Source: Octopus vulgaris (lineage: Eukaryota). Taken from it: DNA of 64,000 nucleotides. Location: NCBI GenBank assembly GCA_951406725.2, contig OX597828.1, forward strand, positions 43,400,001 to 43,464,000, written 5' to 3'. Of the stretch, positions 7,286-59,450 are shown in pieces; position 1 is the stretch's first letter; each line of letters begins with the position of its first letter. The position numbers and the translations under genes are program-made. The notes under the pieces were generated by a model. That model was not told where the DNA came from, did not search any database, and saw only the letters and a list, made by a program, of their open reading frames with translations.

Positions 7286-7485
7286 ATTCGCCAAGCTGGA
7301 ACGCTGAAATCTAAAAGGATTTTTTCATTCTCTCTCTGTTTATTTTCTCTTATTCCATTCTGCCGAAGAGCGTAGGCTCGAAACGTAAAAGACTTCTTCA
7401 TTTTCTCAAGCGTCAGAATAATACACCTGTTTGTTGTTTACACACCTACCTTTATCCTTTCTTTTCCTATAACTATCAACTATAC
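7286..7485 (+). mobile_element. Short pLTR-like element with a degenerate hammerhead (7356-7391)
   Basis: ctgccgaa-gagc(gtag)gctc-gaaa-cgta-aaag, with A6 changed to C; homologous to 32770-33022; preceded by (TA)n. Confidence 0.6.
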
Positions 7486-7560
7486 ATACTTATATACATA
7501 CACACACACACATACATACATACATACATACATACATACATACATACATATATTATATAT

Positions 7561-7948
7561 GGAGGCGTAATGGCCCAGTGGTTAGGGCAGCGGACTCGCG
7601 GTCGTAGGATCGCGGTTTCGATTCCCAGACCGGGCGTTGTGAGTGTTTATTGAGCGAAAACACCTAAAGCTCCACGAGGCTCCGGCAGGGGATGGTGGTG
7701 ATCCCTGCTGTACCCTTTCACCACAACTTTCTCTCACTCTTACTTCCTGTTTCTGTTGTACCTGTATTTCAAAGGGCCGGCCTTGTCACTCTCTGTGTCA
7801 CGCTGAATATCCCCGAGAACTACGTTAAGGGTACACGTGTCTGTGGAGTGCTCAGCCACTTACACGTTAATTTCACGAGCAGGCTGTTCCGTTGATTTGG
7901 GATCAACCGGAATTCTCGTCGTCGTAACCGACGGAGTGCTTCCGTCCA
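7561..7948 (+). mobile_element. Full-length tRNA-derived SINE family A
   Basis: ggaggcgtaatggcccagtggttaggg...ggtttcgattcc head; further copies at 14165-14278(-), 21477-21800(+), 46899-46985(+, head only) and 57875-58200(-). Confidence 0.9.
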
Positions 7949-56400: not shown

Positions 56401-59257
56401 ATTTACATATATATATATATATAGTAAATAGAAGGTAAGTAAGTTTTAAATGTGTGTGTGTTGAATCCTTGCAAAATATCAAACATTTTTTGCTCTCAAA
56501 TTTCTCTGAATATTATTTTTTAACAAAAAATAGAGTTTAGGAAATCTGAAATATGATTTTATAAAGTCAAACATATTGAAACACTCCTTCAGACACAGAG
56601 AGACAGAAAGACACACAAACACACACACACACACACACACACACACACACACACACACACACACACACACACACACACACACACACACACACACACACAC
56701 ACACACACACACACACACACACACACACACACACACACACGCACACGCACGCACGCACGCACGCACACACACACACCTTATTGACGTTCTGTGTATAAAA
56801 ACACACAACTAAATCAGTAGCAGGCGAAAATGATCCAGCATCGTGTGTGTGTGTGTGTGTGTTTGTGTGTGTGTGTATGCATGTGTGTGAGTATTTATAG
56901 ACCCAATGCACACATGGCAATGTATAGGCAGAATCCGTCGCTAATAACATTTAGAACAGAAGGCGGGTTAAAATATGCTTTCAGCGAATTCATTAACCTA
57001 AACCAGTAAAATCCCCAAATGTATGAAATAAACTAAGAACCCTTAAGAATTCAAGAATCAAATATCTAATGCAAGAATGACCAAAGGGATGAAGTCGATT
57101 ACATCGACCCCAGTGCGTAACTGGTACTTATTTAATCGACCCCGAAAGAATGAAAGACAAAGTCGACCTCGGCGGAATTTGAACTCAGAACGTAACGGCA
57201 GACGAAATACCGCTAAATATTTCGTCCGGCGTGCTAACGATTCTGCCAGCTCGCCGTCCTAAGGCGAAATAAGCATTGTAAGTGGATTTGGTAGACAGAA
57301 GTACGTCTAATATTTAAGTATGTGAGTGTGAGTGTGTGATTTTGTGTGTGTGTGTGTGTGTGCGTGGATGTGTGCGTACGCGTATGTGCATTTGAGTGCA
57401 TGTGTGTGTGTGCGTGTGTGTGTGTGTGTATGTATACATCTTTGTGTCTGAGTTTGACCCCCCCACTACCGCTTGACAACCGGTATTGGTGTGTTTATGT
57501 CTCCGTAAATTAGCAGTTCGGCAAAAGAGACCAATAGAGTAACTTTCAGCCAAAAACAAAAATTAAAAAAAAAACATTGGCGATGCCCCAGCATGGCCGT
57601 TATCTAATGATTGAAACAAGTATAAGATAAGTTATGCAACAGAATCTAAATTACATTAAAATAGACATATAGATAGATTGCGGCAGGATTTTGCCGTAGC
57701 AGGTCTCTGACACTCAGTACGCTGTTCTAGACAGGAAAAAGACACAACCCGTAATCTGAACTAAGGCACCCATGAGAAAATACCCATAGAATAGTTAAGG
57801 CTGTAATGATCTTAGTTGTGTGCTTTGCTTAATTATCCACACACAAAACATTAGGTTATATATATATATATATATGGAAGCACTCCGTCGGTTACGACGA
57901 CGAGGGTTCCGGTTGATCCGATCAACGGAACAACCTGCTCGTGAAATTAACGTGTAAGTGGCTGAGCACTCCACAGACACGTGTACCCTTAACGTAGTTC
58001 TCGGGGATATTCAGCGTGACACAGAGAGTGACAAGGCCGGCCCTTTGAAATACAGGTACAATAGAAACAGGAAGTAAGAATGAGAGAAAGTTTGTGATGA
58101 AAGAGTACAGCAGGGATCACCACCATCCCTGCCGGAGCCTCGTGGAGCTTTTAAGTGTTTTCGCTCAATAAACACTCACAACGCCCGGTCTGGGCCTCCA
58201 CCCATATATATATATATATATATATATATATATATATATATATATATATATATATATAATATATATATATATATATATATATATATATATATATATATAT
58301 ATATATATATATATATATATATATATATATATATATATATATATATATATATATAATATATATATATATATATACTACATCAATGACATGAGAGTACAAA
58401 TAATTTCAAAATAATTTTCGTTGTGAATCCGCCATAGCAGTGTTATACGATGGAAGAATAGTAGACAAAATGAAAAAAAAAAAAAAAAAGAAGAAAAAGA
58501 AAAAGAAAAGAGAAAGAAAAAAAAAGAAGTCTTCAGAGAATCTTCAGAATCTTGTTAAATGATTACGGATATCGTAATTCAAATGTCACTTAGTTCAGTT
58601 TATATTTCATTCATCACATGAATAAAGTCCCGATAATTGGCATCAATCGTTTCGGTTCACAAAATCTCGGCATATGACCAAACATTTCTTGTTCCTTGGT
58701 GAAACTAACTCATCAATTCTCTCATTTATTTTTCTCTGTGAGCAATTCTTTGACGTTAACTAAGAGTAAATTTAATTGATAGAAGAGCCTCAATTTAATC
58801 ATTCAATTATCAGTATTATTTGACATCAATATTACTTTTACTTTACAGTATATATTATGTATATTTATCTCCCGGCACATTTACATATGTATATAACATA
58901 TATTTATATAACATATACGGAATTAAAGGAGATGCACAAATTTTGTTAGCTGAAGTTAATACATCCGCTGAGAAAGATTGCATTCATACAAATAAACATA
59001 GATACATAGATACATAGATACATAGATACATAGATACATACATACATACATACATACATACATACATACATACATACATACATACATACATACATACTGT
59101 ACATACATATCTACATAAATACATAAATGCATACATACGTACGTATACATGTATGAGGGCGATAGATATAGACATGTTCATATATAAACCTACACACACA
59201 AGAACACACATATATACATATATTTATAAACGATTTATTTATTTATATATATACAGA

Positions 59258-59450
59258 CCTCGTGAGTACCACTGGCGATTTTTTCCTCTGTCTTCCCTCC
59301 TTGGGATCTTTCCTTCTCCTATGTTTCCGACGAAGAGCTCCGCTCGAAACGTTAAACCCCCCTTCTTCCCTTATTTCCTGAGCGTCCAATAATACTTTAT
59401 TTGTTCCACGTCCTTGCGTTGTTGTGTTTTTTTGTGTTTTTGTTTGGATT
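59258..59450 (+). mobile_element. pLTR-like element with hammerhead motif at 59323-59357
   Basis: gttt | CCGACGA a | gagc(tcc)gctc | GAAA | cg TT | aaac. Confidence 0.7.

Follow-up and report, generated by a model that had tools for sequence, protein, structure and literature searches.

The 64-kb stretch of the Octopus vulgaris genome analysed here (contig OX597828.1, positions 43,400,001 to 43,464,000; hereafter the window) belongs to an assembly of 2.80 billion bases in 227 contigs, has a G+C content of 35% and is rich in microsatellites. It carries ten short hammerhead motifs which are very probably the terminal-repeat hammerheads of Penelope-like elements (PLEs), their density likely resulting from a reverse transcriptase (RT) that copies through the uncut hammerhead and then stops or folds back. 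This reading is supported by the position of the motifs 3' of PLE coding sequence in four of the repeat families concerned (A, B, C2 and E), by fixed 3' ends lying in (TA)n or AT-rich DNA, and by variable 5' ends. As judged from sequence, the motifs are fragments of PLE pseudo-long terminal repeats (pseudo-LTRs) and not independent host ribozymes, and they are predicted to self-cleave. A first-pass annotation of the window had described a "dense and diverse ribozyme repertoire" from at least five families. Density and diversity were both found, with six repeat families (A, B, C, C2, D and E), but the repertoire consists of scattered pseudo-LTR fragments, half of them damaged, that rarely have a same-strand partner.

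All ten motifs picked by the first-pass annotation are present, those at 33457 and 40632 being on the minus strand, and they correspond to minimal type I hammerheads of the PLE kind with C3-G8, U3-A8 and G3-C8 cores, as had been proposed. A strict type I descriptor (positions 3, 7 and 8 free, C or U allowed at 4, one optional base after A9) matched the window five times, always with a Watson-Crick pair at 3-8 (core starts 12933, 19556, 33616, 40671 on the minus strand, and 59327). The hammerhead order attributed to all ten passes this check in five, while the other five are damaged by one or two defects each. In 40 local dinucleotide shuffles of the window, 0.3 paired and 0.65 unpaired matches occurred per shuffle, and the reversed sequence, used as a second control, gave none. 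An unbiased genome sample of 200 kb (20 evenly chosen 10-kb stretches) contained 14 paired matches, 7 of which came from one tandem array, for 0.83 expected, and 4 matches with an unpaired 3-8, for 2.7 expected, which is the chance level. The commonest form of all six families fits the type I order, C2 only when position 6 is left free. Seven of the ten cores lack CUGANGA, in agreement with the earlier view that searches restricted to this core miss most copies, and the additional base after A9 or the C at position 4 noticed at the time were seen in B (extra G), C (C4 and extra A), E (extra A) and the copy at 33457 (C4).

Repeats within the window were detected by masked self-BLAST, plain repeat finding being dominated by microsatellites. 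The family A hammerhead (12930..12967, plus strand) has a U3-A8 core, a palindromic ACCGGU stem III and a predicted cut after 12964; it passes the descriptor, and the identical 38-mer occurs in 26 of 30 loci of this family. Family B is represented by a pseudo-LTR fragment of ca. 205 bp (19542..19744, plus) whose hammerhead, at 19549-19599 (plus), has a G3-C8 pair, an extra G after A9, an AAUAUU stem III and a predicted cut after 19592; it passes the descriptor despite a stem II mismatch at 19579. A family B composite (51026..51277, plus) comprises a partial copy (51026-51060), which is an eleventh, partial motif copy in the window, an inverted element end (51066-51108) and a second copy from 51109 (core 51111), in which the inverted end stands in place of the missing 5' arm of stem I. 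The intact family C hammerhead (59323..59357, plus) passes the descriptor with C3-G8, C at 4, an extra A after A9 and an ACGU stem III, within a repeat of ca. 200 bp ending in (TA)n; a second copy (43628..43662, plus; core 43632) has a mismatch in stem I. Both C2 copies are damaged, one (7356..7391, plus; core 7360) by C at position 6 and a stem I mismatch, the other (32904..32939, plus; core 32908), which is atypical of the family in having A at 6, by G17 and a C-A mismatch in stem III. Family D forms a divergent inverted pair, the right arm of which (33612..33649, plus) passes the descriptor with C3-G8, a 3-bp stem II and stem III ACUCUGAGU, while the left arm (33457..33494, minus; core 33490) is damaged, with C at 4 and a U-U at the base of stem II. 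The family E hammerhead (40630..40676, minus), with a canonical core, an extra A and an ACGU stem III, passes the descriptor and lies within a pseudo-LTR fragment at ca. 40539-40962.

For family A, the link to PLEs is found in the window itself, where the first-pass annotation had overlooked a PLE coding sequence at 10769-12268. This 5'-truncated, endonuclease-containing (EN+) element of family A (10769..13030, plus) is composed of an RT region (10769-11626), a stop codon, a linker and GIY-YIG endonuclease (11630-12268), a 3' untranslated region, the hammerhead and a (TA)n flank beginning ca. 55 nt downstream of the hammerhead. Its open reading frame (ORF) matches Pfam RVT_1 with an E-value of 5e-9, the GIY-YIG domain scoring at the cutoff. 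Among the 29 other top copies, 22 are collinear back into the ORF at 94-99% identity and 7 have inverted 5' segments, and an optional tail was present in 8 of the 30. No RNA data set was listed among those that contain the family A end. A decayed GIY-YIG remnant related to family A was also detected at 1614-2196 of the window (minus; tblastn E-value 5e-26); visual inspection of the 700 nt that follow it revealed no hammerhead.

A second, decayed PLE (25921..27591, minus) is the parent of family E and retains RT and endonuclease remnants, this copy ending before its hammerhead. Its RT was recognized by tblastn with the family A RT (E-value 5e-12), its two frames being without Pfam match, and 22 of 29 further copies of the ORF end have the ribozyme region of family E within the 600 nt downstream. 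Between the ORF end and the hammerhead of this family, tRNA-like A and B boxes were noticed by eye (25950-26030 and 40870-40962, both minus, and loci L182-L210). ARAGORN predicted no gene in 13 loci, there was no Rfam match, and no tRNA-derived PLE repeat was encountered in the literature searched; this stretch is possibly a captured RNA polymerase III promoter.

For family B, an upstream pattern present in 477 copies led to long copies, and in two of the three long loci fetched (L294 and L295) a GIY-YIG ORF (24.9 bits for a cutoff of 22.6) lies ca. 1 kb upstream of the hammerhead. No parent was found in L291, L292 or L293. A short family A-like linker fragment upstream of the B copy in L292 was treated as unrelated, and in L291 the B copy is preceded by a 492-aa open frame (990-2750, minus) of an unrelated non-LTR RT. 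A 43-copy upstream pattern gave 18 long loci for C2, with RT or endonuclease sequence upstream in 14, the ribozyme downstream in 13 and both in 10. C and C2 look alike by eye in the ribozyme and in a downstream motif.

Traits of EN+ PLEs, namely an inverted 5'-truncated copy, a tail, and AT-rich or (TA)n targets, are found in A, B and D, and inversions in E. The translations of A, B and C2 contain a Cys-rich CX2-5CXXC linker, a trait that bears on the distinction of Neptune or Nematis from the Penelope/Poseidon clade and that was not found before the GIY-YIG motif in E. C and D show PLE-type ends only, with inverted pairs and an optional tail in D and (TA)n ends alone in C. Tails of A (e.g. 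L063) and D (e.g. L218) share, by eye, a short pyrimidine-rich motif that is perhaps a common RT start signal. A young D subfamily is nearly identical at three unlinked loci (L218:1900-2100, L219:3750-3950 and L229:3680-3880), where it always takes the form of two arms inverted head to head within (TA)n, one of them bearing a tail. No full-length element with two direct pseudo-LTRs was recovered, the sole direct pair examined (L293) being a local duplication without ORF.

How such inserts arise was addressed in family B, using 60 of 3,045 copies matched by an anchor 3' of the ribozyme (the first 60 of 100 listed). In 45 of them the insert starts at least 34 nt upstream of the predicted cut site and so runs through it, which makes it likely that these copies were made from uncut RNA. 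Twenty reach 57-65 nt upstream of the cut, two of which continue into parent sequence. The 5' ends of the 60 inserts show no accumulation at the cut site, and the only two inserts that start there are both explicable by microhomology or internal deletion. An inverted upstream copy is present in 40; the inverted arm generally terminates 85-92 nt beyond the cut site, with the direct arm extending ca. 50 nt further, and a direct arm that outruns the inverted one is the signature of a PLE tail (PMC8557442). One identical foldback junction is shared by 15 of the 60 (loci within L231-L290, e.g. L234, L235 and L252), in which the foldback has been amplified as a unit having a whole hammerhead in one arm and a cropped one in the other.

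The 5' boundary of family B is sharp, follows a pyrimidine tract and AG, and may correspond either to a transcription start or to a splice acceptor. A spliced origin was considered, for which neither a matching donor nor a shared first exon was seen. In 15 short copies that keep the AG, the preceding base, which is C in the parent, is G or C in 7 copies each and T in the remaining one. This distribution is compatible with a G derived from the cap as well as with base pairing to the 3' end of the element itself.

A likely mechanism is that the RT starts just downstream of the hammerhead, copies through it before cleavage has taken place, and in most cases stops or folds back soon after, which would generate the high density. 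In intact tandem elements, the hammerhead might cut slowly, either by dimerizing through its palindromic stem III or with the help of a PLE protein, and this slow cutting would process multi-unit transcripts; solo copies, mostly devoid of a same-strand partner, would decay. A similar behaviour is reported for an anole PLE: reverse transcription begins at an internal position of the RNA, mutation of the ribozyme does not prevent insertion, and cleavage requires the presence of protein; the double change C3G/G8C gives partial rescue, and RNA-seq showed no reads ending at the cut site (PMC11167929).

The palindromic stem III described in the first-pass annotation is a true palindrome in five families, but that of D has a central unpaired U. 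In monomers, 0-1 bp of stem III can form in A, B, C, C2 and E and 3 bp in D; being unable to close in the first five families, stem III conforms by its anatomy to the published dimer model (PMC4209133). Among 53 close same-family pairs, 45 are divergent, 6 direct and 2 convergent, and a divergent pair places sense and antisense within one transcript. The scarcity of direct pairs, together with the dimer folds and folding z-scores given below, suggests that most solo copies are probably silent passengers.

Several results weigh against PLE hammerheads as the explanation for all six families, or against their cleavage. At the gathering threshold, Rfam had no match in the window, and the portion of its E-value list considered (150 of 680 rows) was dominated by microsatellite matches to microRNA models. 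No ORF was found in the 30 family C loci examined, nor upstream of the long copies of D. In A and D the computed double-hammerhead dimer is more favourable than a pair of monomers in their minimum folds, but in B, C, C2 and E it is not, and folding energies are unexceptional when compared with shuffles (z from -1.55 to +0.88). Conservation of the B core across subfamilies is suggestive only and not significant alone (P=0.074). Finally, the fixation of U at position 6 in a family of thousands of copies argues that fast cleavage is wholly unneeded.

The earlier claim that position 3 always covaries with position 8 holds between families, where three forms of the pair occur, but no covariation was demonstrated within any family. 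In a tally covering 913 kb (the window and the fetched loci), a Watson-Crick 3-8 pair is the majority form in eight of eight multi-locus clusters (5 C-G, 2 U-A and 1 G-C), six of which had been seeded by the first-pass picks; unseeded clusters that have A6 and 4 bp or more in both stem I and stem II are all C-G (8 of 8). Copies within a family descend from few masters, so that decay, not covariation, is what they display. In the family B core alignment (37 rows, after collapsing 14 foldback duplicates from 51), G3 occurs in 36 rows and C8 in 31. Differences at the subfamily level affect 13 of 100 positions, located in loop II, the flanks and two stem sites where the pair is kept, and none of the 17 core positions. 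Four public sequencing runs, which carry four different organism labels, contained thousands of B contigs, or hundreds in one case, with no core change reaching 10%. Under pairwise mutagenesis, G3-C8 was the sole engineered swap in the CUGA turn that rescued activity (PMC9901934), and by analogy the family B core is predicted to cut, at a reduced rate.

The second unusual core is that of C2. The first-pass annotation had not noticed that U is the usual base at position 6 in the family of the 7356 and 32904 motifs: among the 2,596 exact matches to a 33-nt C2 pattern, a hand count of the first 100 listed gave U in 95, C in 3, G in 1 and A in 1, and U6 was also found in 15 of 15 ribozyme copies of the long loci. 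At position 7, the 95 U6 copies have G in 48, U in 23, C in 15 and A in 9. The conserved A6 is present in A, B, C, D and E and lacking in C2, which for this reason is filed as hammerhead-derived. In one ribozyme, an A6C change lowers cleavage at 0.3 mM Mg2+ from 0.30 to 3.6e-6 per minute (PMC7151607), and A6C variants cut poorly in low Mg2+ and better in Mn2+ (PMC3088659; PMC7151607). No cleavage data for U6 were found in the literature searched; by comparison with A6C, the C2 core would be expected to show hardly any activity at physiological Mg2+, yet it has been amplified. Nor did this literature yield any report of a natural G3-C8 or U6 core, or of cephalopod hammerheads, three studies that may hold such cases (Lunse 2017, Arkhipova 2017 and Przybilski 2007) falling outside the comparison. 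A tentative proposal, which we hold to be somewhat less probable than its opposite, is that these are two PLE lineages with cores hitherto undescribed in nature, one of which (G3-C8) still cuts while the other (U6) is crippled and has nonetheless spread, PLEs keeping the fold and the 3-8 pair without needing fast cleavage.

A rather unlikely explanation is that PLE ends retain the hammerhead fold for a purpose other than catalysis (binding of a protein, or a promoter or splice context) or simply tolerate it as a passenger; in either case cleavage would be irrelevant to spread. The amplification of C2 despite its U6 and the uncut-RNA origin suggested for family B inserts both agree with it, as do the normal insertion of ribozyme mutants in vitro (PMC11167929) and the existence of Naiad PLEs without canonical hammerheads (PMC8557442). 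The maintenance of the 3-8 pair in three forms across families, one of them the only activity-rescuing swap mentioned above, speaks for catalysis instead, and so does the contrast in C2 between a free position 7 that takes all four bases and stems that are kept in the top copies. That the short elements are self-contained retrozymes or short interspersed nuclear elements (SINEs) spreading as cut-and-ligated circular RNAs is very unlikely: a true tandem array of retrozyme type, with units of ca. 359 bp, does exist in the genome (L211), and one B subfamily has been amplified as a fixed foldback unit, but only 6 of the 53 close pairs are in direct tandem, no circular permutation occurs at the cut site and four families continue into PLE coding sequence. 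It is highly improbable that the motifs form a host-exploited repertoire of active ribozymes cutting host transcripts, since half of the window copies are damaged and divergent pairs would anneal sense to antisense; a copy number of ca. 240,000 and the presence of family B sequence in contigs of one run that is presumed, by a guess, to derive from RNA are the points in its favour. Fortuitous occurrence of a loosely defined motif in AT-rich repeats would account for the unpaired 3-8 matches, but hardly at all for the excess of paired ones in the window and the 200-kb sample or for thousands of exact copies with reversed controls at 0, and this explanation may be dismissed.

The density of one motif per 6-7 kb given in the first-pass annotation is correct for the window (11 in 64 kb) but is about twice the rate of the genome sample (P=0.024), in which 17 homologs of the six families were found in 200 kb, or one per 11.8 kb. 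This leads to a genome-wide estimate of ca. 240,000 homologs, damaged ones included (95% range 140,000-380,000, with inverted pairs counted as independent). First-look candidate counts, which are lower bounds, are at least 2548 for A, 942 for B, 1413 for C, 2649 for C2, 1205 for D and 2908 for E. An exact 18-nt B core occurs in 6,174 copies and the exact 33-nt C2 pattern in the 2,596 copies cited above, both reversed controls giving 0. Further hammerhead families are present in the flanks of the loci, among them a second minimal U3-A8 family with a 3-bp stem I, unrelated to A and found in three loci including L158 and L229. Since CUGANGA descriptors and Rfam miss most copies, the per-genome hammerhead counts in the literature are probably too low.

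Minimal hammerheads (min-HHRs) of metazoan PLEs were described by Cervera and de la Pena in 2014 (PMC4209133), and the motifs reported here resemble them in being of type I with a short stem I, an extra base between 9 and 10.1, a palindromic stem III and a U3-A8 variant, as well as in the occurrence of several families per genome, mostly as solo copies from truncated PLEs, with opposite-strand pairs. In contrast, the extracted text of Figure S3 of that paper, with 56 representatives, has only CUGA- and UUGA- cores, with no G3-C8, C4, U6 or cephalopod case, and the largest count in the part of the paper available is ca. 9,000 descriptor hits per genome versus an estimated 240,000 homologs here, damaged ones included. 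Small PLE-associated variants described by Lunse, Weinberg and Breaker (via PMC6765202) likewise have a reduced stem III and were explained by a dimer model. The green anole PAc (Poseidon) PLE of Frangieh et al. 2024 (PMC11167929) also has a pseudo-LTR hammerhead, an optional tail, AT-rich targets and insertion from uncut RNA; its C3G/G8C form is an engineered double mutant, whereas G3-C8 occurs naturally here, in a family whose exact core is present at least 6,174 times. Rare natural departures at 3/8, 4 and 6 (U3-A8, U4C and A6C) are known (Perreault et al. 2011, PMC3088659; PMC7151607), but they are single phage, viroid or microbial cases not fixed in high-copy retroelements, and the available text of these papers mentions neither natural G3-C8 nor U6.

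Non-LTR retrozymes (PMC7229834; bioRxiv 10.64898/2026.07.22.740005) are likewise type I hammerheads in animal repeats for which an origin from PLE pseudo-LTRs has been proposed. They differ in forming direct tandem arrays with canonical hammerheads, the six families described here being solo or inverted fragments. The array of L211 (2200-4800; G000:C1, near 20,002,200) looks like such a retrozyme, its units of ca. 359 bp having a canonical type I hammerhead with a 6-bp stem I and a 4-bp stem II; five hammerheads are on one strand and two are inverted. Repeats without hammerheads also occur in the window, namely a four-unit tandem array at 34195-35266 (units of ca. 254-270 bp) and SINE-like families at 3912-4289, 5609-6000, 7555-7949, 21474-21803 and 57876-58194.

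Overall, the motifs are largely of a known kind, since a 2014 paper (PMC4209133) had already reported minimal PLE hammerheads, the U3-A8 pair, an additional base following A9 and the coexistence of many families in one genome. Two families linked to PLE parents appear to be new on the basis of genomic sequence, namely a naturally occurring G3-C8 family of high copy number and one with U6, and so does the genomic evidence for inserts from uncut RNA. The role of the hammerhead in PLEs is still open (PMC8557442), and it is dispensable for insertion in vitro (PMC11167929). The existence of a natural G3-C8 family would provide evolutionary confirmation of a swap encountered otherwise, in the literature searched, only as an engineered rescue. 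A single genome in which separate high-copy lineages have become fixed for C3-G8, U3-A8, G3-C8, C4 and U6 cores allows cleavage rate to be compared directly with amplification success and, if their interpretation is true, the G3-C8 and U6 lineages would represent a natural experiment on the need for fast cleavage in PLE mobility.

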